From a virus (Duplodnaviria; Heunggongvirae; Uroviricota; Caudoviricetes): a DNA stretch of 10,271 nt. The stretch is taken from the IMG/VR virus record IMGVR_UViG_2917855067_000001, positions 1 through 10,271 of that record. One strand, given 5' to 3'. Both the position numbers and the translations under genes were made by a program. Positions 1 through 10,271 of the stretch are shown in pieces. Below the pieces are notes generated by a model that worked only from the letters and a program-made list of their open reading frames with translations, was not told the origin of the DNA and made no database searches. Numbering within the stretch: the first letter of the stretch is position 1; the number at the start of each line of letters is the position of its first letter.

Positions 1-296
1 TCAACTCACGTATTTCAATCTGCTCAGGTGTCATGGTAAAGCAGGTGGATTTTCCCGCTTCGCTCTTCTTTCAGTTGTCGAACCCATTTATCCATCGTGG
101 ATTTGCCGACATTCATCGCAGTGGCAGCGGCGGCAACGGTGTAATGCTGATCGAGTACAAGCTGGGCAGCCTCGAGGCGAAACTCGGGGCTAAAATTGCG
201 TCTGTTACGTCCGGTCATAATGTCACCTGTTTTGACTATGAGGTGATGATATCACCTCTATTCAGGTGGCCAAATTTACTATGCCACTACATTTCA
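1..296 (-). mobile_element. IS3-family insertion sequence, one end only (element continues beyond window start)
   Basis: Contains an orfA-type ORF (24..218) whose product resembles IS911/IS3-group OrfA (RNFS.EF...AQLV.DQ.YTVA.AA.AM.VG.STM..WV.QL..ER.GK), with ..[10 protein letters not shown] continuing in another frame at the window edge. About 80 bp of leader separates the orfA start from a putative 5'-TG terminus (complement of CA near 295-296). Exact boundary and IS name cannot be fixed without a reference inverted repeat. Confidence 0.7.
24..218 (-). CDS. IS3-family transposase OrfA (HTH DNA-binding part), apparently frame-disrupted
   Basis: 64-codon [59 protein letters not shown]..., matching recalled IS911 OrfA up to ..ERQGK. 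The expected continuation (GK-S/T-..[10 protein letters not shown]) is readable only in a different frame after the A-run in GGGAAAA, so a 1-nt indel or sequencing error is likely. Confidence 0.6.
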
Positions 297-378
297 TCGC
301 TTTATTTGCTTCAAGCCACATTTTTGAATCACCAATAAATCGGGCTATTACTGCTTTGTTTTGTGCTGCACGAAGCAT
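297..378 (-). pseudogene. kil: kil-like gene, 5' fragment truncated by the IS insertion
   Basis: Reverse-strand reading from ATG (complement of 376..378) gives MLRAAQNKAVIARFIGDSKMWLEANKA, which resembles recalled lambda Kil (..KFTIATFIGDEKMFREAVDA..). The frame runs straight into the IS terminus, so the 3' part of the gene is missing. Confidence 0.45.
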
Positions 379-392
379 CTGGTGATTGATGG

Positions 393-527
393 CTATTTCA
401 TTGCGCATAACGCCTCCAGTTGTTTCTTTGCTGCTCTGATTAATTGTTTAACTCGGCGTGATAATTCAGATTCGTGCGGGTAGAAAGCGGACATGACGCC
501 GCTACCCGCGAGCTGAAAGTGCATCAT
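393..527 (-). CDS. cIII-like small protein (putative FtsH inhibitor)
   Basis: 44-aa ORF MMHFQLAGSGVMSAFYPHESELSRRVKQLIRAAKKQLEALCAMK. A Shine-Dalgarno AAGGAG (complement of 534..540) sits 6 nt upstream of the ATG. Position between ea10 and kil matches lambda gene order, and the helical region resembles cIII (..ESLLERITRKL..). Internal start of the 61-aa track ORF. Confidence 0.5.
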   Translation of the reverse strand: MMHFQLAGSGVMSAFYPHESELSRRVKQLIRAAKKQLEALCAMK

Positions 528-602
528 GGGTAACTCCTTATATTTGATTGCATAACGAAAATGCCTCTGGTGAAGCATTATTGGTATGCGGTAAAGCCGC
601 GC

Positions 603-971
603 TCAGGCGGCTTTGATAGTCATATCATCTGAATCAAATATTCCTGATGTATCGATATCGGTAATTCTTATTCCTTCACTACCATCCATTGGAGGCCATC
701 CTTCCTGACCATTTCCATCATCCCAGTCGAACTCACAAACAACACCATATGCATTTAAGTCTTTCGAAATTGCTATAAGCAGAGCATGTTGCGCCAGCAT
801 GATTAATACAGCATTTAATACAGCGCCGTGTTTATTGAGTCGGTATTCAGAGTCTGACCAGAAATTATTAATCTGGTGAAGTTTTTCCTCTGTCATTACG
901 TCATGGTCGATTTCAATTTCTATTGATGCTTTCCAGTCGTAATCAATGATGTATTTTTTGATGTTTGACAT
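603..971 (-). CDS. ea10: Ea10-like early protein (lambda ea10 family)
   Basis: 122-aa ORF MSNIKKYIIDYDWKASIEIEIDHDVMTEEKLHQINNFW..., matching my recollection of lambda Ea10 in sequence and length. GAGGA-type ribosome-binding site upstream. Sits between ral and cIII as in lambda. Confidence 0.7.
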   Translation of the reverse strand: MSNIKKYIIDYDWKASIEIEIDHDVMTEEKLHQINNFWSDSEYRLNKHGAVLNAVLIMLAQHALLIAISKDLNAYGVVCEFDWDDGNGQEGWPPMDGSEGIRITDIDTSGIFDSDDMTIKAA

Positions 972-990
972 CTATTCATATCCTCATAGA

Positions 991-1017
991 TAAAAAATCG
1001 CCCTCACACTGGAGGGC
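991..1017 (-). terminator. Rho-independent terminator candidate between ral and ea10
   Basis: On the minus strand, hairpin GCCCTC-cagtgt-GAGGGC (plus coordinates 1000..1017) is followed by GATTTTTTA. It lies about 30 nt upstream of the ea10 start. Confidence 0.5.
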
Positions 1018-1153
1018 AAAGAAGATTTCCAATAATCAGAACAAGTCGGCTCCTGTTTAGTTACGAGCGACATTGCTCCGTGTATTCACTCGTTGGAATG
1101 AATACACAGTGCTGTGTTTATTCTGTTGTTTATGCCAAAAATAAAGGCCACCA

Positions 1154-1354
1154 TCAGGCAGCATTGTTATTCTGTTTACCAAGTTCTCTGGCAATCATTG
1201 CCGTCGTTCGTATTGCCCATTTATCGACATATTTCCCATCTTCCATTACAGGAAACATTTCTTCAGGCTTAACCATGCATTCCGATTGCAGCTTGCATCC
1301 ATTGCATCGTTTGAATTGTCCACACCATTGATTTTTATCAATAGTCGTAGTCAT
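1154..1354 (-). CDS. ral: Ral (restriction alleviation protein)
   Basis: 66-aa ORF MTTTIDKNQWCGQFKRCNGCKLQSECMVKPEEMFPVMEDGKYVDKWAIRTTAMIARELGKQNNNAA, matching recalled lambda Ral nearly residue for residue. Has a 4-Cys cluster. Position downstream of N in the pL operon fits. Confidence 0.8.
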   Translation of the reverse strand: MTTTIDKNQWCGQFKRCNGCKLQSECMVKPEEMFPVMEDGKYVDKWAIRTTAMIARELGKQNNNAA

Positions 1355-1424
1355 ACGGATAGTCCTGGTATTGCTCCATCACATCCTGCGGATGCTCTTC
1401 GAACTCTTCAAATTCTTCTTCCAT
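1338..1424 (-). CDS. Small acidic peptide, lambda orf28-like (28 aa)
   Basis: Minus-strand ORF MEEEFEEFEEHPQDVMEQYQDYPYDYDY (28 codons plus TGA) overlaps the ral start by 17 nt in a different frame. This is the arrangement I recall for lambda orf28 and ral. Confidence 0.45.
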   Translation of the reverse strand: MEEEFEEFEEHPQDVMEQYQDYPYDYDY

Positions 1425-1530
1425 ATCTCACCTTAAATAAGTGGTTTGCTGCCTAATTTCATTTTCTGGCGACCAACACAAGTTACACCCATTTCACTGC
1501 GTGGCTTGCTGTAATAAATTCGGTTAGTTC

Positions 1531-1557
1531 GGACAATAATAAACCCACCGAAGTGGG
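1531..1557 (-). terminator. Rho-independent terminator candidate in the pL operon
   Basis: On the minus strand, hairpin CCCAC-ttcg-GTGGG (plus 1544..1557) is followed by TTTATTATTG. It lies between the 88-aa ORF and orf28/ral, and would be read through under N antitermination. Confidence 0.45.
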
Positions 1558-1630
1558 CTATGACCATTTTTTATTTGGATTTCGTTGGTGAGCGTGGTTA
1601 ACAACTCTGTGCATTACATCCTCATATTTT

Positions 1631-1897
1631 TCATCTGCAATTTTTTTCTACATCTCGAGGAAATGGTGTTGCTAATGCTTTGTCAACTTTGTCCATTGGG
1701 TCTTCATTAATCTTATATTCCGGACCGTCATCTATAGCATTAAATCCAGGTGTTACACCGTTTTCTAATGCATATGCCATTCTCTTTTCCCATCTCGTTA
1801 TTCTCCTTCTGTCTTGAGGTGTAAGACCTCTATCAAATACTTTCCTGTTTTGTCCGCAGTTAGGGTTAACATAGATAGTCTTTTTCACCATAAGCAT
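1631..1897 (-). CDS. Hypothetical protein, AT-rich ORF immediately downstream of N (the slot where lambda has sieB)
   Basis: ORF ..MLMVKKTIYVNPNCGQNRKVFDRGLTPQDRRRITRWEKRMAYALENGVTPGFNAIDDGPEYKINEDPMDKVDKALATPFPRDVEKNCR. Start choice is uncertain (ATG at 1897 or 1891; the track uses TTG at 1903). It abuts the N stop codon. No family recognised. Visibly more AT-rich than its neighbours. Confidence 0.55.
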   Translation of the reverse strand: MLMVKKTIYVNPNCGQNRKVFDRGLTPQDRRRITRWEKRMAYALENGVTPGFNAIDDGPEYKINEDPMDKVDKALATPFPRDVEKNCR

Positions 1898-1899
1898 AC

Positions 1900-2205
1900 T
1901 CAATAAGCACCGTACGGTGGTTTACTATACAATCTTATTCTTTGAACTGCATGTATCTTGTTTCCTAATGGGTTTAAATCCTTGTAGTAAACCCTCCTAT
2001 TTTTTTTCTCGACTTCATCTACTTTCTTGCAGAGAAGGCTGCCAAGTGATGCTGCTTTGTCTGCTCTGACGCAACCAGAGAGTTTTAGCGCAATCTTTCG
2101 CGCCAGTCTCTGTTCTTTCATTGCCTGTTCACGTTGAGCCTGTCTGCGTGCTCTGCGGCGATTTCTGGCGTTATCGTCAGCCAGATATGTAATGACTACT
2201 GTCAT
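1900..2205 (-). CDS. N: N-like transcription antiterminator (arginine-rich motif)
   Basis: 101-aa ORF MTVVITYLADDNARNRRRARRQAQREQ... with an N-terminal arginine-rich motif typical of lambdoid N proteins. Shine-Dalgarno GGAGG 5 nt upstream. nutL lies about 115 nt upstream. First gene leftward of pL. Confidence 0.75.
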   Translation of the reverse strand: MTVVITYLADDNARNRRRARRQAQREQAMKEQRLARKIALKLSGCVRADKAASLGSLLCKKVDEVEKKNRRVYYKDLNPLGNKIHAVQRIRLYSKPPYGAY

Positions 2206-2231
2206 GTTGACCTCCGATGATTGACTTTAGC

Positions 2232-2297
2232 GGTGACGTAACTGGGGGAGGGAGGTTAACTCCCTGATGCTGTTGCGCGGCTGCACTTTACGTCACC
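2232..2297 (-). promoter_or_regulatory. Large inverted repeat in the N leader (candidate RNase III / translational control stem)
   Basis: Perfect 10-bp arms GGTGACGTAA (2232..2241) and TTACGTCACC (2288..2297) enclose an inner hairpin GGGAG-gttaa-CTCCC. The location, between nutL and the N ribosome-binding site, matches where lambda has its RNase III-processed leader structure. Confidence 0.4.
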
Positions 2298-2319
2298 CCA
2301 AAGCCAACTACTCTTTGGT

Positions 2320-2361
2320 TCCCGCATTTCGGCGGGACAATCCCATCAATGTTAAAGAGCC
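2320..2361 (-). promoter_or_regulatory. nutL (boxA + boxB)
   Basis: On the minus strand, boxA GCTCTTTAACA (complement of 2350..2360) is followed by a boxB hairpin TCCCGC-cgaaat-GCGGGA (complement of 2320..2337). The same boxB sequence recurs at nutR. Confidence 0.7.
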
Positions 2362-2399
2362 TGCCAATCTGTTCCGTTTGGCTACCAGCGTCCTGCTGA

Positions 2400-2490
2400 T
2401 GACTTAAATTTAAGATTTCTTTAATTGGTGGTCAAGGGTATTTTTGAAGAAAACTTAAATTTTATTGCGAAGTTTAAGTTTTGCTTTGAT
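2400..2490 (-). promoter_or_regulatory. OL operators and pL promoter (P22-type operator half-sites)
   Basis: OL1 ATTTAAGATTTCTTTAAT (2408..2425) has the same symmetric arms as OR1. Further ..TTAAG/CTT.. sites occur at about 2450..2490. A -35-like TTGACC on the minus strand is the complement of 2430..2435. The -10 is not clear-cut. Confidence 0.5.
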
Positions 2491-2496
2491 TTTTAA

Positions 2497-2526
2497 AGGA
2501 AAGAAAAAAGGGGCGAATGCCCCTTA
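2497..2526 (-). terminator. Rho-independent terminator directly after the c2 stop codon
   Basis: On the minus strand, hairpin GGGGC-attc-GCCCC (plus 2510..2523) is followed by TTTTTTCTTTCC. Confidence 0.65.
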
Positions 2527-3174
2527 TGGAAGGTTTGCTATTTTTGCATCGACAACTACACCGATGATTTTGCAGTTCCCGTTGATCTCAATCATCGGAT
2601 ATTGTGGGTTAAGTGGTTTTAGAAACCTTCTGCCAGCATCAATAACTAACTTCTTGAAAGTTGCCTCGTTTTCTCCTTCGAGCTTTGCCACTACCAGCTT
2701 CCCATTACGAGGTTCTACTTCAGGATCGACTAGTATTATCATCCCTTCCGGGATGCTAAGACCGGCTGGAGCCGTCATCGAATCACCCTTTACGTCCAGC
2801 CAAAACGAATCTTCTGAACAATCTACGGTTGTATCGTACCAGTTATCTATTGCACGCTTATGATATGGCTCTACAGCTTCCATCCAACATCCTGCGCTTA
2901 CCCAACTAATTAGAGGATACGAACCTCTTGGATCATGCCTGCTGTGATAGGCAATGTTTGAAAGACTATCTTCTCCTTTCAACAAGTAATCAGGGGAGCA
3001 CTGCAAAGCCTTGGCTAAGGCCAATAGGTTTTCGCCATTGGGCTCAGTTTCAGAACGCTCCCATTGGGAAATAGCAACATTAGACACGCCAACCATCTTG
3101 CCAAGGGCAGCCTGCCTAATCTTGAGTTCTTTTCTGCGAGCGCGAATACGCTCACCCATCAGTTGTGTATTCAT
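2524..3174 (-). CDS. c2: Prophage repressor, P22 C2-type (LexA/S24 peptidase family, lambda cI functional analogue)
   Basis: 216-aa ORF MNTQLMGERIRARRKELKIRQAALGKMVGVSNVAISQWERSETEPNGENLLALAKALQCSPDYLLKG..., near-identical to my recollection of P22 C2. N-terminal HTH and C-terminal S24 autocleavage domain (..GDSM.., ..KIIGVVV..). Divergent from cro across an operator-rich intergenic region. Confidence 0.92.
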   Translation of the reverse strand: MNTQLMGERIRARRKELKIRQAALGKMVGVSNVAISQWERSETEPNGENLLALAKALQCSPDYLLKGEDSLSNIAYHSRHDPRGSYPLISWVSAGCWMEAVEPYHKRAIDNWYDTTVDCSEDSFWLDVKGDSMTAPAGLSIPEGMIILVDPEVEPRNGKLVVAKLEGENEATFKKLVIDAGRRFLKPLNPQYPMIEINGNCKIIGVVVDAKIANLP

Positions 3175-3182
3175 AGTTAAGA

Positions 3183-3240
3183 CATCTTAAATAAACTTGA
3201 CTTAAGATTCCTTTGATAGATAATTTAAGTGTTCTTTAAT
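3183..3240. promoter_or_regulatory. OR operators with divergent pR/pRM
   Basis: P22-type 18-bp operators ATTTAAGTGTTCTTTAAT (3223..3240) and ACTTAAGATTCCTTTGAT (3200..3217), plus a third TTAA-containing site near 3183..3200. pR: -35 TTGACT (3197..3202), 16-bp spacer, -10 GATAAT (3219..3224), with cro ATG at 3255. Confidence 0.7.
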
Positions 3241-3254
3241 TTCGGAGCGAGTCT

Positions 3255-3440
3255 ATGTACAAGAAAGATGTTATCGACCACTTCGGAACCCAGCGTGCGG
3301 TAGCTAAAGCGTTAGGCATTAGCGATGCAGCAGTCTCTCAGTGGAAGGAAGTCATCCCAGAGAAAGACGCCTATCGACTGGAAGTCGTTACAGCTGGCGC
3401 CCTGAAGTATCAAGAAAGCGCTTACCGCAAAGCGGCATAA
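3255..3440 (+). CDS. cro: Cro (P22-type)
   Basis: 61-aa ORF MYKKDVIDHFGTQRAVAKALGISDAAVSQWKEVIPEKDAYRLEVVTAGALKYQESAYRKAA, matching recalled P22 Cro. Confidence 0.92.
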   Translation: MYKKDVIDHFGTQRAVAKALGISDAAVSQWKEVIPEKDAYRLEVVTAGALKYQESAYRKAA

Positions 3441-3446
3441 GCAAAT

Positions 3447-3490
3447 TGCTCTTTAACAGTCATGGTCCTCATTCCCGCCGAAATGCGGGA
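3447..3490 (+). promoter_or_regulatory. nutR (boxA + boxB)
   Basis: boxA TGCTCTTTAACA (3447..3458), identical to the rrn-type boxA core, followed by boxB hairpin TCCCGC-cgaaat-GCGGGA (3473..3490). Lies just downstream of cro. Confidence 0.75.
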
Positions 3491-3548
3491 ATACAACGCG
3501 CATCAGTTGGTGCGTATAACTTCTTATTTGTTAAGGAAATACTTACAT

Positions 3549-3827
3549 ATGCAACTTACAAGTACTCGCAAGAAAGCGAATGCAATCACAAGCAATATCC
3601 TAAATCGAATTGCTGTACGTGGTCAGCGAAAGGTTGCTGATGCATTAGGGATTAATGAATCGCAAATTTCGCGATGGAAAGACAGCTTTATCCCAAAGAT
3701 GGCCATGCTTCTGGCTGTGCTGGAGTGGGGTGTTGAAGACGAGGAATTAGCAGAGCTGGCAAAGAAAGTAGCCATGGTGCTGACAAAAGAAAAGCCTCAA
3801 GACTGCTGCAACAGTTTTGAGGCCTGA
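3549..3827 (+). CDS. c1: cII-like transcriptional activator (P22 C1-type)
   Basis: ATG at 3549 within the 3462..3827 track ORF gives MQLTSTRKKANAITSNILNRIAVRGQRKVADALGINESQISRWKDSFIPKMAMLLAVLEWGVEDEELAELAKK..., matching recalled P22 C1 / the lambda cII family. Confidence 0.8.
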   Translation: MQLTSTRKKANAITSNILNRIAVRGQRKVADALGINESQISRWKDSFIPKMAMLLAVLEWGVEDEELAELAKKVAMVLTKEKPQDCCNSFEA

Positions 3828-3861
3828 TGTAGAAAGACTGGCTCAATCCACAGGAGTAATT

Positions 3862-4023
3862 ATGACAAAACGTCGTAAGAAATACCAGGAAAAAGAAGAG
3901 ATTCGACACCCTGATTCACCTGAGGGATTAGTGGTAGCCGCAGCAAATAACAGGGCGTTCGCAGAGCGCCTTGTTGGTGTTTACAGACTAGCCAAAGCAG
4001 GAGTGAAACATGGGCGTCGTTAA
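3862..4023 (+). CDS. Hypothetical small basic protein between c1 and the O-like gene
   Basis: ATG at 3862 preceded by AGGAG at a good spacing. Product [53 protein letters not shown]. Its 3' end overlaps the O-like start by 14 nt. No family recognised. Confidence 0.4.
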   Translation: MTKRRKKYQEKEEIRHPDSPEGLVVAAANNRAFAERLVGVYRLAKAGVKHGRR

Positions 4024-4831
4024 GTTAGCTGATTACAGGCCTCAACTGGAGGTCGTGGAGCATCGCGTGGCAGATACCGAAGATGGTTTCATGCGCGTTG
4101 CTAACGAGATTACCGACAGTCTGCTGATGGCTGATTTAACCGTCCGGCAGTTGAAGGTGATGCTCGCTATCATGCGCAAGACATACGGATTCAATAAGCC
4201 GATGGATCGACTCACAAACACGCAGATAGCAGCCATGACAGGTATTCATCACACTCATGTTTGCGCTGCCAAGCGCCAGCTTATTGAGCGTAAATTCCTC
4301 ATTGCTGATGGCGTGAAAATCGGAGTGAACAAGGTGGTTTCTCAGTGGATTAGCCAGGACAGCTTAACATTAGCTAAAACAGCTAATAAAACATTAGCCA
4401 AGTCGGCTAATGGGTATAAGCCAAGTCAGCTAAACACAAAAGACAATATACAAAAGACAATAAATACAAATACCCCCTTACCCCCTAACGGGGGCGGCGA
4501 TGGGCAGGTTAAACCTGAACGTCGCAAGGCAGAACGAATCGACTACGAATCCTTCCTGAACGCCTACAACACCGAAGTCGGTGACAGACTGCCACACGCT
4601 GTTGCGGTCAACGAGAAACGCAAACGTCGCCTGAAGAAAATCATCCCGCAACTGAAAACGCCAAACGTGGACGGTTTCAGAGCGTATGTCAGGGCGTTTG
4701 TGCATCAGGCCAAGCCGTTTTACTTCGGAGACAACGACACGGGCTGGACGGCCGATTTTGATTACCTGCTGAGGGAAGACTCGTTAACGGGAGTACGGGA
4801 AGGGAAGTTTGCAGACAGGGGGATTGCATGA
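4010..4831 (+). CDS. Replication initiator, lambda O-like (P22 gene 18-type)
   Basis: 273-aa ORF with an N-terminal domain resembling lambda O (..[37 protein letters not shown]..). Iteron-like repeats and an AT-rich tract lie inside the gene, as for ori-lambda. AGGAG ribosome-binding site upstream. Stop overlaps the helicase start (ATGA). Confidence 0.85.
4350..4475. repeat. Origin-like iteron array plus AT-rich tract inside the O-like gene
   Basis: Four dyad-symmetric repeats of 17-18 bp spaced about 20-24 bp apart (TTAGCCAGGACAGCTTA, TTAGCTAAAACAGCTAA, TTAGCCAAGTCGGCTAA, TAAGCCAAGTCAGCTAA), followed by the A/T-rich run ACACAAAAGACAATATACAAAAGACAATAAATACAAATA and then a G/C palindrome CCCCC..GGGGG. 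Confidence 0.6.
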
Positions 4832-6204
4832 AACAGGATATCGAAGCGAGCGTTATCGGTGGCCTGCTGATTGGTGGATTAACACCAACCGCCAGCGACG
4901 TTCTGGCAACGCTGGAGCCGGAAGCGTTTTCAATTCCGCTCTACCGGAAAGCCTTCGAGGTTATCCGCAAGCAGGCGAGAAACAGAAACCTAATCGACGC
5001 GCTGATGGTTGCCGAGGCGTGCGGAGAGGAGCATTTCACGTCAATCCTGATGACCAGCAAAAACTGCCCGAGTGCCGCAAACCTGAAGGGATATGCCGGA
5101 ATGGTCGCGGATAACTATCACCGCCGTCTGGTGCTGGAAATCATGGATGAAATGCGTGAACCAATCCAAAGCGGAACCATCGACGCATCGAGTCAGGCGA
5201 TGGATGAACTTGTAAAACGGCTCTCAGCCATCAGAAAGCCCCGTGACGAGGTTAAACCTGTACGGTTAGGGGAAATCATCACTGACTACACTGACACGCT
5301 TGACAGGCGTCTGAGGAACGGAGAAGAGTCAGATACCCTGAAGACCGGAATCGAAGAACTTGACGCCATCACCGGAGGGATGAACGCGGAAGACCTGGTG
5401 ATTATCGCCGCTCGTCCTGGTATGGGGAAAACCGAACTGGCGCTGAAGATTGCCGAAGGCGTTGCAAGCCGCGTTATTCCTGGTTCTGACGTCCGGCGCG
5501 GAGTATTGATTTTCTCGATGGAAATGAGCGCATTGCAGATTGCAGAGCGAAGCATTGCCAACGCCGGGAGGATGTCGGTTAGCGTGCTGCGAAATCCTGC
5601 ATCGATGGATGACGAAGGCTGGGCGCGCGTTGCTAACGGCATGAGTCAGCTTGCAGATTTGGATGTATGGGTAGTCGATGCCTCGCGGTTATCTGTCGAA
5701 GAAATTCGCTCAATCGCAGAACGACACAAACAGGAAAATCCAAACCTGTCACTCATCATGGCGGATTATCTTGGCCTGATTGAGAAGCCGAAAGCAGACC
5801 GCAACGACCTCGCAATTGCTCACATCTCAGGAAGCCTTAAGGCGATGGCGAAAGACCTGAAAACGCCTGTTATCTCCCTAAGTCAGCTTTCACGCGATGT
5901 TGAGAAGCGACCAAACAAACGCCCGACAAACGCAGATTTGCGTGATTCAGGAAGCATTGAGCAGGACGCAGACTCAATCATCATGCTCTATCGGGAAGCG
6001 GTATATGACGAGAACAGTAGCGCCGCGCCATTTGCTGAAATCATCGTGACGAAAAACCGTTTTGGCTCACTTGGTACGGTTTACCAGCGGTTCTGTAACG
6101 GACACTTTGTTGCATGTGACCAGGATGAAGCCAGACAGATTTGCACAGCATCAAATGCACCTGCTGCGCGTGGCAGACGATATGCACAAGGGGCTGACGT
6201 ATGA
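4828..6204 (+). CDS. Replicative DNA helicase, DnaB family (P22 gene 12-type)
   Basis: 458-aa ORF with DnaB-like N-terminal domain and a Walker A motif ([15 protein letters not shown]). Translationally coupled to the O-like gene. Confidence 0.9.
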
Positions 6205-6281
6205 CCATCTACATCACTGAGCTAATAACAGGTCTGCTGGTAATCGCAGGCCTTTTTATTTGGGGGAGAGGGAAGTCATGA
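6201..6281 (+). CDS. Putative small hydrophobic peptide (26 aa)
   Basis: ATG 6201 overlaps the helicase stop (ATGA). Product [26 protein letters not shown] is a single hydrophobic helix. Its stop overlaps the ninB ATG. Not in the ORF track because it is below the length cutoff. Confidence 0.3.
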
Positions 6282-6766
6282 AAAAGCTAACCTTTGAAAT
6301 TCGATCTCCAGCACATCAGCAAAACGCTATTCACGCAGTACAGCAAATCCTTCCAGACCCAACCAAACCAATCGTAGTAACCATTCAGGAACGCAACCGC
6401 AGCTTAGACCAGAATCGAAAGCTTTGGGCTTGCCTTGGTGACGTCTCTCGTCAGGTTGAATGGCATGGTCGCTGGCTGGATGCAGAAAGCTGGAAGTGCG
6501 TTTTTACAGCAGCATTAAAGCAGCAGGACGTTGCTGAGGTAACAGGCGCAACAGTAACCAGCATAAATCAGGCTGCGGCTAAAATGGCGCGGGCAGGAAT
6601 CTTAGTCATTGATGGTAAGGTCTGGCGAACGGTGTATTACCGGTTCGCTACCAGGGAAGAACGGGAAGGAAAGGTGAGCACGAATCTGATTTTCAAGGAG
6701 TGTCGCCAGAGTGCCGCGATGAAGCGGGTTTTATTTGTTTATGCGGCGGGGGGAGGAAATCAGTGA
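6278..6766 (+). CDS. ninB: NinB/Orf-family protein (recombination mediator) with divergent C-terminal half
   Basis: From ATG 6278 (Shine-Dalgarno GGGGGAGAGGG upstream), the first ~87 residues [85 protein letters not shown] match recalled lambda NinB. The remainder (AEVTGATVTSINQAAAKMARAG...) diverges from lambda but keeps a family-like pattern. Confidence 0.75.
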   Translation: MKKLTFEIRSPAHQQNAIHAVQQILPDPTKPIVVTIQERNRSLDQNRKLWACLGDVSRQVEWHGRWLDAESWKCVFTAALKQQDVAEVTGATVTSINQAAAKMARAGILVIDGKVWRTVYYRFATREEREGKVSTNLIFKECRQSAAMKRVLFVYAAGGGNQ

Positions 6767-7041: not shown

Positions 7042-7647
7042 ATGAGCACACAACTAGTCTTTCATCAAACAAAATTCCATCCTGTTAAACACAACAACAG
7101 TATCTGGCTTACTGCCGTTGAGATTGCTCAAGCTCTCGGATATAAAAAATCTGATGCCGTAACTCAGATCTACGATCGAAATTCCGATGAATTTAGGGCA
7201 GATATGACTGAGACCCTCAATTTGAGTGTCTCAGGGAACTACCAGAAAACAATACGCATTTTCTCCCTCCGTGGTGCCCATTTGATCGCTATGTTCGCCC
7301 GCACTCCTGTAGCCAAAGAATTCCGCCGCTGGGTTCTGGATATTCTCGATCGAGAAGTTCAACAATCCCCAATCACAAAACAATTCACTGATAACGAACT
7401 TTGCACACTCGCCTGGTTATGGCGAGCAGGGGATGTGATGTTAACCGCCTGCCAGAATGTTACTCCACTTCTTCAGGTTGCGGAGCATCGCGAAGCCGGT
7501 CGCTTTACTTCTATTGAGCAAGAATATCCCCAGATACTACATAAGGCGCGCGAAATCCTTGCCAGAGAAACGGCACATGTAAGATTCCAGCCGTGGCAGG
7601 ATGATAAGTGGAGCCGAGTATTGCCGCATTTGCGTTCTGAGCAGTAG
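7042..7647 (+). CDS. Bro-N domain protein (antirepressor / Roi-like family)
   Basis: 201-aa ORF. The N-terminal ~105 aa carry Bro-N-like motifs (..SIWLTAVEIAQALGY.. and ..IRIFSLRGAHLIAMFARTPVAKEFRRWVLDIL..). The C-terminal half is unassigned. Confidence 0.7.
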   Translation: MSTQLVFHQTKFHPVKHNNSIWLTAVEIAQALGYKKSDAVTQIYDRNSDEFRADMTETLNLSVSGNYQKTIRIFSLRGAHLIAMFARTPVAKEFRRWVLDILDREVQQSPITKQFTDNELCTLAWLWRAGDVMLTACQNVTPLLQVAEHREAGRFTSIEQEYPQILHKAREILARETAHVRFQPWQDDKWSRVLPHLRSEQ

Positions 7648-7828
7648 CAATAAAGTTTCCGGTGAGAAATGTCACCAGCATTTTGTTATGAAACGGGTAT
7701 TGGCGGTATATGGGGGCGGGGCTTTAGTTATTAGGTGTCGAGAATTAATTGTTTGTAGCAATATAAAAAGGAGCGCTTAAGTCCGTTTATTTTTTTTAAG
7801 CTTCATATACATAGTGGATAAAAATGAG

Positions 7829-7853
7829 AACCACCCGCTGAACGGGTGGTTTT
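7829..7853. terminator. Terminator hairpin between convergent genes (possibly bidirectional)
   Basis: AACCACCCG-ctgaa-CGGGTGGTT followed by TTTT on the plus strand; the complement is followed by a T-rich tract on the minus strand. It lies between the Bro-N gene end (7647) and the orphan gene end (7928). Confidence 0.6.
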
Positions 7854-7927
7854 GCGCAAGTTAAATTTTATAATTTCAGTGAATCTTTACGCTGTAATAA
7901 TGCAAATGATAGTTGAAAAAAACACAA

Positions 7928-8605
7928 TCAGTCGATGGATTCTCCGTAGGATGCAACTGCCTGAGCGACGCAAAAACGATCAATACACTCTATTTCTCCA
8001 TAATCACGCAGGCAATAATAAGTATTATTGTCTTTATCAAAAGCGTAAATGCTACAAATACCCTCAAGCTCACAACTTGCGTCCCATCCACTATTAGATA
8101 ACGTGCCCCATTCCTGGTAAAGCCCTGCGTTAACTTCTCGATTGATAATATGCGGTCCACTATAGTTATCATAATCGTAACTATAGATGTCACGTGCCTC
8201 AGGAAAATTCCCGTTCATGTTTTCAATCCACGGTAAAATATCTTTAACTGAGTTATAAAGTTCAATGCTGTATTTGAAAAAACGCTTCACAATAAAAACA
8301 TAGATGCCGGCAGATTTGTTTGTTGATTTATCAGTGGCGAAAATGACAAAAATCTTCCCAACGCACTTTTCATCTACGCCCGGAAAAGTTACTGTGCCAT
8401 CCTGGCTAACCGCCAGAACATTATTGTCTGCATTAGTGCTACAGGTCCATTTTACCTTGTCATTATTAATAGGGTCATTATCAATGACCATCTTGAAGGT
8501 TGCTCCTGGGAACAAACTGTTAGGGAAACAGTAACCACTCTCCATATCATTTTTAATATCATAGATATGGCTATCAACTAACACGCCTGTAATTTTGCTC
8601 ATCAT
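7928..8605 (-). CDS. Orphan AT-rich hypothetical protein (moron candidate), opposite strand to the phage early operon
   Basis: Long open frame on the minus strand within visibly AT-rich DNA, where long chance ORFs are unlikely. Probable start is ATG-ATG at 8605/8602 with AGAGAG upstream, giving MMSKITGVLVDSHIYDIKNDMESGYCFPNSLFPG... of about 225 aa (the track's TTG start at 8650 is less likely). Cys- and Asp/Asn/Tyr-rich C-terminal part, no obvious signal peptide. No family recognised. Confidence 0.6.
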   Translation of the reverse strand: MMSKITGVLVDSHIYDIKNDMESGYCFPNSLFPGATFKMVIDNDPINNDKVKWTCSTNADNNVLAVSQDGTVTFPGVDEKCVGKIFVIFATDKSTNKSAGIYVFIVKRFFKYSIELYNSVKDILPWIENMNGNFPEARDIYSYDYDNYSGPHIINREVNAGLYQEWGTLSNSGWDASCELEGICSIYAFDKDNNTYYCLRDYGEIECIDRFCVAQAVASYGESID

Positions 8606-9018
8606 TGAACTCTCTTTGTTTGTTAAATAAAAAGTTTTATTCCTGAACAACGGAACACGCTGATATTAATGCAGCCAATGAATTGTTGTTGTTATTTGGA
8701 GGTTATATAGTGGTATGAATGTTATTATGCGATGTCTCTGAGTGATGGGGTAAGGATTATATGATTCGCTTTTGAGATTTACCTATGTCAGGCGTTGCTG
8801 TTCATGTTCGTCCCCGTTGTCAGTCTTCTTAGTCTGAGCTAATGTCATCATCAATGGGTTATCAGTTTTCTCTGAAGTTATATAATTAATTGAGCGCCAT
8901 AGCACCATGGGGCATTGTTGAATTTCATCTTCAATTGATTTTCCATAATCAACTCGCCATAATCATGTCATCGGAGCCTGAACACCTCCGGTGACTTCTG
9001 CGCTAAACGGGGACGTTT

Positions 9019-10025: not shown

Positions 10026-10258
10026 ATACTTACTACATCACACTACCCTGGCCGCCGAGCAATAACCGCTACTACCGCCATAATCGCGGGCGCACGCACA
10101 TCAGCGCAGAGGGGCAGGTATACCGCGATAACGTCGCCCGAATCATCAAAGGCTCCATGCTGGATATCGGTCTGGCTATGCCAGTGAAATCCGTATTGAC
10201 GTGCCACATGCCGGATCGCCGTCGCCGTGACCTGGATAATCTGCAAAAGCAGCTTTGA
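10022..10258 (+). CDS. rusA: RusA-like Holliday junction resolvase, frame ends prematurely relative to canonical RusA
   Basis: GTG 10022 overlaps the ybcO stop (GTGA). Product [76 protein letters not shown] matches recalled RusA up to ..DNLQK, then reads QL-stop. RusA-like sequence (DALNQ) continues in another frame to the window end. Confidence 0.7.
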
Positions 10259-10271
10259 CGCACTCAACCAA

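Follow-up and report, generated by a model that had tools for sequence, protein, structure and literature searches.

The window, i.e. the whole stretch of DNA analysed here, corresponds over its entire 10,271 bp to contig PDIE01000014.1 of the draft genome GCA_004745295.1 from strain E3356 of Escherichia cryptic clade II, and carries the early region of a lambdoid prophage with a gene order like that of phage lambda. The genes of the leftward (pL) operon and the repressor gene that follows them lie on the minus strand, together with part of an insertion sequence (IS) of the IS3 family at the extreme left (Table 1); the 101-residue ORF with an arginine-rich N terminus is, as judged from its sequence, a putative N antiterminator. 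On the plus strand are cro, cII, an O-like replication gene, a DnaB-like helicase gene, ninB, a Bro/antirepressor gene, ninE, ybcO and rusA. With respect to the window together with a sibling contig described below, the ORFs for cI, cro, cII, the O-like protein, the DnaB-like helicase, Q, holin, lysozyme and Rz are all full length.

Table 1. Features of the IS/kil end of the window and of the neighbouring leftward genes
Feature	Position	Strand	Evidence or remark
IRL-proximal 291 bp of an approximately 1,256-bp IS3-family element	1..291	-	97.3% identity to annotated copies; remainder off the contig
IS orfA, 5' part (HTH)	24..218	-	Pfam HTH_Tnp_1, E=3e-9
Low-quality consensus patch	36..60	no strand	8/9 differences from all other IS copies, of homopolymer-indel type
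Promoter-like site, TTGGCC, 16 nt, TG-TATCAT (candidate)	246..273	-	Consensus scan; partly inside the inverted repeat; also in the E. coli H8 copy
Kil-IS fusion ORF, 48 aa	262..408	-	CSGIVNLAT, encoded by the IS inverted repeat, follows 39 native residues
Left terminal inverted repeat	265..291	-	Reads TGTAGTGGCATAGTAAATTTGGCCACC; checked against both termini of the element in E. coli H8 and in Klebsiella
Native part of kil, codons 1-39 of 50	292..408	-	Pfam Lambda_Kil; aligned to lambda Kil and the uninterrupted 50-aa allele
TTT flanking triplet, expected right-hand copy of a 3-bp target duplication	292..294	no strand	Inferred from the TTC/ATT duplications of relatives
cIII	393..527	-	Pfam cIII, E=4.6e-30; overlaps the kil start
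ea10/DUF2528	603-971	-	Pfam DUF2528
ral	1154-1354	-	Pfam Ral
Gene split by a homopolymer indel	about 1631-1903	-	Gene downstream of N
N-like antiterminator, 101-aa ORF	1900-2205	-	Arginine-rich N terminus
cI-type repressor	2524-3174	-	Gene after the pL operon

Positions 1-291/293 share 97.3% identity with features that carry the annotation 'IS3 family transposase' and occur in 80 E. coli genomes and 92 plasmids, the plasmid copies being from Escherichia, Klebsiella, Yersinia, Rahnella and others. The full-length copy in E. coli H8 is 1,256 bp long, has the tips TGTAGTGG...CCACTACA, and encodes an OrfA with an HTH_Tnp_1 domain and an OrfB with an rve domain (E=7e-29), scoring 291 bits against the NF033516 IS3-family model; an A6G slippery site is present in its sequence and a 'programmed frameshift' is annotated in its record. 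The same model gives 23.8 bits on the window OrfA, relative to a cutoff of 160, with only the helix-turn-helix part of OrfA lying within the window. The H8 copy (WP_085967274.1) and a copy on the Klebsiella plasmid pKP18-2110-2-1 (WP_094645175.1) share the inverted repeat and the orfA N terminus of the window and, outside positions 36-60, are identical to window positions 1-291 except at the polymorphic base 270, at which it is the Klebsiella copy that agrees with the window. Whereas the window holds the first 291 bp, both of them span the whole 1,256 bp, with the orfA/orfB frameshift arrangement intact and 3-bp target duplications visible. ISPsy24, a Pseudomonas IS3-family element with similar tips that emerged from a literature search on terminal repeats, is not the same element. 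IS3-family elements transpose by a copy-out/paste-in mechanism catalysed by a DDE transposase.

The phage-proximal terminus of the element can be placed with precision. Its left repeat, TGTAGTGGCATAGTAAATTTGGCCACC, and the right repeat seen in full-length copies, TGTAGTGGTCAACAAAAACTGGCCAC, form an imperfect pair, and the one IS end in the window is of the TG...CA type, the sequence at 284-291 reading ...CCACTACA, i.e. TGTAGTGG on the minus strand; this tip matches the opposite end, TGTAGTGGTCAAC..., of full-length copies, the right end of which reads TGTAGTGGTCAACAAAAACTGGCCACAGC. The window, the E. coli H8 copy and a copy on plasmid pPK8217 are collinear as far as ...GCCACTACA and then diverge at once, and an uninterrupted kil allele (E. 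coli MS 16-3) matches the window from 291 or 292 on, such that base 291 ('a') is attributable to either the IS or kil. Three independent copies and the uninterrupted allele thus put the terminus at 291, a 5-bp correction of the boundary at 296 that was initially proposed, and the alignment of the three copies gives TGTAGTGG as the IS tip, in place of the TGAAATG suggested earlier. Two copies of independent origin are flanked by 3-bp target duplications, the one in E. coli H8 by TTC and the one in the Klebsiella plasmid by ATT, and the triplet adjoining the window terminus is expected to be one half of such a duplication.

The IS is oriented in the direction of pL transcription. Its promoter-like site (Table 1) is a candidate promoter for orfA on the basis of a match to consensus. 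Between the inverted repeat and the orfA start, positions 243-261 form a perfect 8-bp hairpin (gaggtgat/gat/atcacctc) containing the Shine-Dalgarno-like AGGTGA of orfA and its complement, and orfA translation may be regulated by this hairpin, on the pattern of other IS elements. When RNA reading through from pL is folded across the junction, kil pairs with the ribosome-binding region of orfA, a result which is marginal relative to shuffled sequences (z = -2.1). The orfA reading frame of the window stops at 24-26, and continues in another frame after a net change of -2 nt, whereas OrfA has 103 residues in intact relatives; the stop is probably an artefact of the contig end. An exact-protein look-up of the apparent 64-residue OrfA returned no record, as expected if it is an artefact.

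The gene into which the element is joined is kil. The Pfam Lambda_Kil profile (PF06301) is matched at E=1.5e-20 and 72.7 bits (cutoff 27.6) over 31/31 profile positions by residues 9-39 of the fusion ORF, alignment gives 46% identity to lambda Kil, and the start of the gene overlaps the end of cIII, as in lambda. The native protein of uninterrupted relatives has 50 residues and ends ...KSAINLPWYRRK; in the window residues 40-50 give way to CSGIVNLAT, the stop codon being at 262-264, so the native frame is incomplete and the basic C terminus (...WYRRK) is lost, and the whole Lambda_Kil core survives. The proposals of the earlier note that an IS3-family insertion truncates kil, and that the kil-like frame runs directly into the IS, are thus borne out, with 39 native codons and 9 IS codons in place of 50, and with an orfA helix-turn-helix match in the adjoining DNA. 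The exact fusion product is on record only in PDIE01000014.1 and two Logan contigs, all of which break at the IS.

With respect to function, studies on lambda provide the nearest guide. Kil-deltaC11 of lambda (Kil 1-36) resembles the window product in that some 11 C-terminal residues are gone and most of the helix-turn-helix core is kept; it still blocks division, although about 10 times more Z rings are left intact, and a basic C-terminal motif of the RSK/RSSK type is thought to be important for Kil (PMC11762379). The window product differs from Kil-deltaC11 in keeping the equivalent of lambda residues 1-32, i.e. four fewer, with the cut falling into helix 2, and in that, along with loss of the basic tail, it has a foreign tail of nine residues and an N-terminal extension of seven. 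By analogy, the fusion probably weakens or abolishes host killing, and the lambda truncations (PMC11762379) suggest that its activity would be reduced, possibly not to zero. For kil of lambda, a gene that kills the host independently of lysis, PMC3961180 gives that activity is abolished when the stop codon of kil is disrupted, that kil- phage replicates, assembles and lyses, slightly earlier than kil+ phage, and that kil is dispensable. Given that kil is dispensable for growth of lambda, its loss alone would not be enough to make a prophage defective.

The kil/IS3-family junction is real and independently confirmed. It is found, identically, in Logan contig SRR8068136_243, which stops 30 nt into the IS, and in NCBI contig RHJQ01000033.1, which begins 21 nt into it, and its presence in an independent data set and assembly establishes it. 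The 30 nt correspond to k-1 of a 31-mer graph and are the signature of a branch at a repeat. Between these two contigs identity is 100%; over the approximately 10 kb shared with the window, they differ from it by one SNP, one homopolymer length and five one-base indels. The junction 27-mer, GCCACTACATTTCATCGCTTTATTTGC, had no match in the GTDB species representatives, IMG/VR or the JGI metagenomes, and the junction was covered by none of 5,426 complete E. coli genomes.

An understanding of how the window was assembled is essential to its interpretation. E3356 was sequenced at 40x on the Ion Torrent platform, with single-end reads of 35-400 nt, and its assembly comprises 49 contigs (PMC6639607). 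At base 1 the draft contig itself runs out, 291 bp inside an IS of approximately 1,256 bp, and this edge is physical rather than biological. Since that repeat is longer than the reads (<=400 nt), the assembly was unable to cross it and the contig stops within the IS; on entry into a multi-copy IS, a contig must stop within about one read length, which here is 291 bp. Both ends of the window lie in repeats and both are error-rich. At the left end, positions 38 and 40 are 'a' in the window but N in the deposited contig, the two sequences being otherwise identical. The patch at 36-60 is found in no other IS copy in the plasmid and E. coli collections (>170 copies, best match 89%). An origin of the patch in a different, related IS found no support in either collection, and a genuine, frameshifted dead IS copy is disfavoured by the N calls and by the indel-type differences at 36-60. 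At the right end, comparison with the sibling contig shows five one-base indels at 10190-10267, within the last 82 bases, and the rusA frame is corrupted.

Two further differences from the siblings lie within the window. At 1641-1647 it has a run of seven T residues, where both sibling assemblies have six; the longer run splits the gene downstream of N, which encodes 110-112 residues in the siblings, into an ORF of 90 or 49 residues, and is probably an Ion Torrent homopolymer error. The sole base substitution is at 8674 (G in the window, A in RHJQ01000033.1 and the Logan contig), reflecting either that the second data set derives from a near-clonal sibling or a further sequencing error in the window. 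The window thus carries errors of the Ion Torrent type, with both contig ends being especially unreliable. The methodological lesson is that genes missing past a contig edge, and frameshifts near one, are not to be read as biology.

The nin region has features of its own. NinB (6278-6766, plus strand) is chimeric, in that residues 1-85 are 85-100% identical to NinB, whereas the remaining residues, approximately 77, are unrelated, giving 162 residues compared with 146 in relatives. Exactly the same chimeric NinB is present in all three assemblies, so the chimera is genuine, and a deletion or a recombination event in nin probably left it as a joint. The ninB gene is non-essential. On the minus strand at 7928-8605 there is an ORF of 225-240 residues with a weak Invasin_D4 match, and the GC content at about 7500-9000 is 38-41%, compared with about 50% in the adjacent replication and nin regions; the ORF has the look of a moron (cargo of an accessory kind) that has entered the nin region. 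It is within this ORF, at window position 8240, that the Logan contig stops.

What lies beyond the IS is the question of most consequence for the prophage. The reading we favour, with a probability of about 0.65, is that of a simple insertion with phage DNA continuing on the far side. A copy of the approximately 1.26-kb IS3-family element has transposed into the 3' part of kil, which is predicted to encode the small FtsZ/ZipA-directed division inhibitor of the pL operon, in a lambdoid prophage of E3356 and at least one sibling isolate, exchanging the last 11 residues of Kil for nine encoded by the IS; on the favoured reading it would have generated a 3-bp target duplication. The remaining 11 codons of kil, an Erf/Rad52-type recombination module and xis/int would then be on another contig. 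A simple insertion predicts a plus-strand left junction of TCATTTCCTGCGATACCACGGAAGGTTGATAGCTGATTT|TGTAGTGGTCAAC, i.e. ...CCACGGAAGGTTGATAGCTGATTT joined to the right end of the IS.

The earlier note had instead argued that the IS replaces the distal pL operon and that the prophage is likely defective. This is unsupported, since it relies on a contig that ends inside a repeat. That gam, bet, exo, xis and int are absent on the left is literally true, but uninformative, because only 291 bp lie there and all of these are IS. Since the window ends inside the IS as a short-read contig, the absence of distal genes is no evidence of their loss; the missing distal pL genes are an assembly artefact, not evidence for a deletion. 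Nor were lambda-type gam, bet and exo the genes to be expected beyond kil: the closest relatives have a P22-like set there, comprising an Erf/Rad52-type protein, ssb, an exonuclease and an anti-RecBCD protein. With kil itself being non-essential, the insertion need not make the prophage defective, and the full-length regulatory, replication, Q and lysis ORFs fit a recent insertion in a young prophage, as they suggest this one to be.

If phage DNA does continue beyond the IS, its genes could still be expressed. Transcripts from pL would enter the IS in the sense direction, the two having the same orientation, and a consensus scan of the pL-sense strand of a full-length relative of the IS found no terminator-like site. 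Adhya, Gottesman and de Crombrugghe reportedly found in 1974 that pL transcription modified by N reads through polarity caused by IS elements. The distal genes, if present, could thus be reached by read-through.

The main alternative is that the IS marks the end point of a deletion or rearrangement, in which recombination between IS copies, or an IS-mediated adjacent deletion, removed the last codons of kil and the distal pL operon with its recombination genes, xis and int, and left the prophage locked in and defective. Multi-copy IS elements mediate deletions and inversions, and the fact that all three assemblies break at the IS implies that it is present in more than one context of these genomes, which would supply substrates for IS-IS recombination. 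No phage-derived DNA lies to the left of the IS in the window, and the chimeric ninB indicates that the prophage is not pristine, with some rearrangement having occurred elsewhere. Disruption of kil is, moreover, especially advantageous in prophages no longer able to lyse, which also counts for a deletion. The argument from the missing DNA, however, rests on absence past a contig end, and any multi-copy IS would be expected to give such an end when 400-nt single-end reads are assembled; the same logic demonstrably fails at the right end of the window. There, RHJQ01000033.1 extends further, with an intact RusA of 120 residues, a Q-type antiterminator, a cold-shock gene, ynfU, holin, lysozyme and Rz; with Q and the lysis genes thus contiguous in the sibling, genes that are missing past the edge of the window are not thereby missing from the genome. 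Intact genes for regulation, replication, Q and lysis also speak against a deletion, as does the nearest natural analogue, the prophage of E. coli CUVM3 described below, which is a simple insertion. We thus regard a deletion as unlikely, although clearly to be reckoned with. Should the far side prove to be non-phage, the locus would be one more case of IS-driven prophage decay, in the little-studied Escherichia cryptic clade II.

That the kil/IS junction might be an assembly chimera at a low-quality contig end is very improbable and effectively refuted: although the outermost bases are unreliable, given the N calls and the indel patch, and the right contig end is equally error-rich, the junction at 291/292 is 230 bp inward of the bad patch, where the sequence otherwise agrees fully with that of other IS copies, and the same junction is present in SRR8068136 and RHJQ01000033.1.

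Returning to the simple insertion, comparison with related prophages is instructive. The closest relative is the E. coli CUVM3 prophage (NZ_CP116970.1), which is 98.7% identical over window positions 292-6533. Like the window, it has an IS3-family element in the 3' end of kil in the pL orientation, with the two sites being 21 bp apart. The CUVM3 insertion is nonetheless independent, involving a different IS (locus 9553-11010) with a 5-bp duplication, CATGG, and with both junctions visible; from the termini of IS2 and the 5-bp duplication, we take this element to be IS2-like, the record annotating it only as IS3 family. In CUVM3 phage DNA continues past the IS, where a small ORF is followed by genes for a Rad52/Erf-like annealase, Ssb, a 3'-5' exonuclease, an anti-RecBCD protein and others. 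The CUVM3 record has peculiarities of its own, in that PGAP annotates a 50-codon 'kil' with a tail read from the IS, and the 3'-5' exonuclease gene is annotated as frameshifted. As an analogue with another IS in another host, CUVM3 proves nothing about E3356. The intact relative MS 16-3 has the same P22-like module, with an integrase further to the left.

A 266-nt probe across the kil allele matched 1,110 E. coli genomes, in 652 of which the match was uninterrupted over >=80% of its length; among the partial matches listed, many end at about positions 57-61 and at position 110 of the query, and look like mosaic boundaries. A laboratory precedent is provided by the lambda cI857 kil::IS2 lysogen LT1566, a standard strain (Haeusser et al. 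2014, PMC3961180), which likewise has an IS3-family element in the kil gene of a lambdoid prophage. At least two natural prophages have thus independently acquired an IS3-family element in the last third of kil, in addition to one laboratory phage with such an element in kil, for which the text consulted leaves the position unstated.

These cases raise the idea, a doubtful one, that in natural lambdoid prophages IS3-family elements repeatedly settle in the 3' end of kil. If so, lysogens with a blunted Kil might survive transient or abortive derepression of pL, such that the IS would tame a prophage toxin while the rest of the operon would be expressed by N-mediated read-through; alternatively, the region might be a structural hot spot for IS3-family transposases. 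Were IS hits to prove enriched in kil, they would provide a modest, testable case of host selection against a prophage toxin.

IS insertion in kil is, however viewed, ordinary and already known biology, with IS elements in prophage accessory genes being commonplace, and kil::IS alleles are already in laboratory use, so the insertion at E3356 is of little biological import. The window differs from one of these, LT1566, in its particulars: LT1566 (PMC3961180) is a laboratory strain in which IS2, with a 5-bp duplication, lies in lambda proper, whereas in the window a 1.26-kb IS, expected to have a 3-bp duplication, has interrupted kil in a natural isolate of cryptic clade II.
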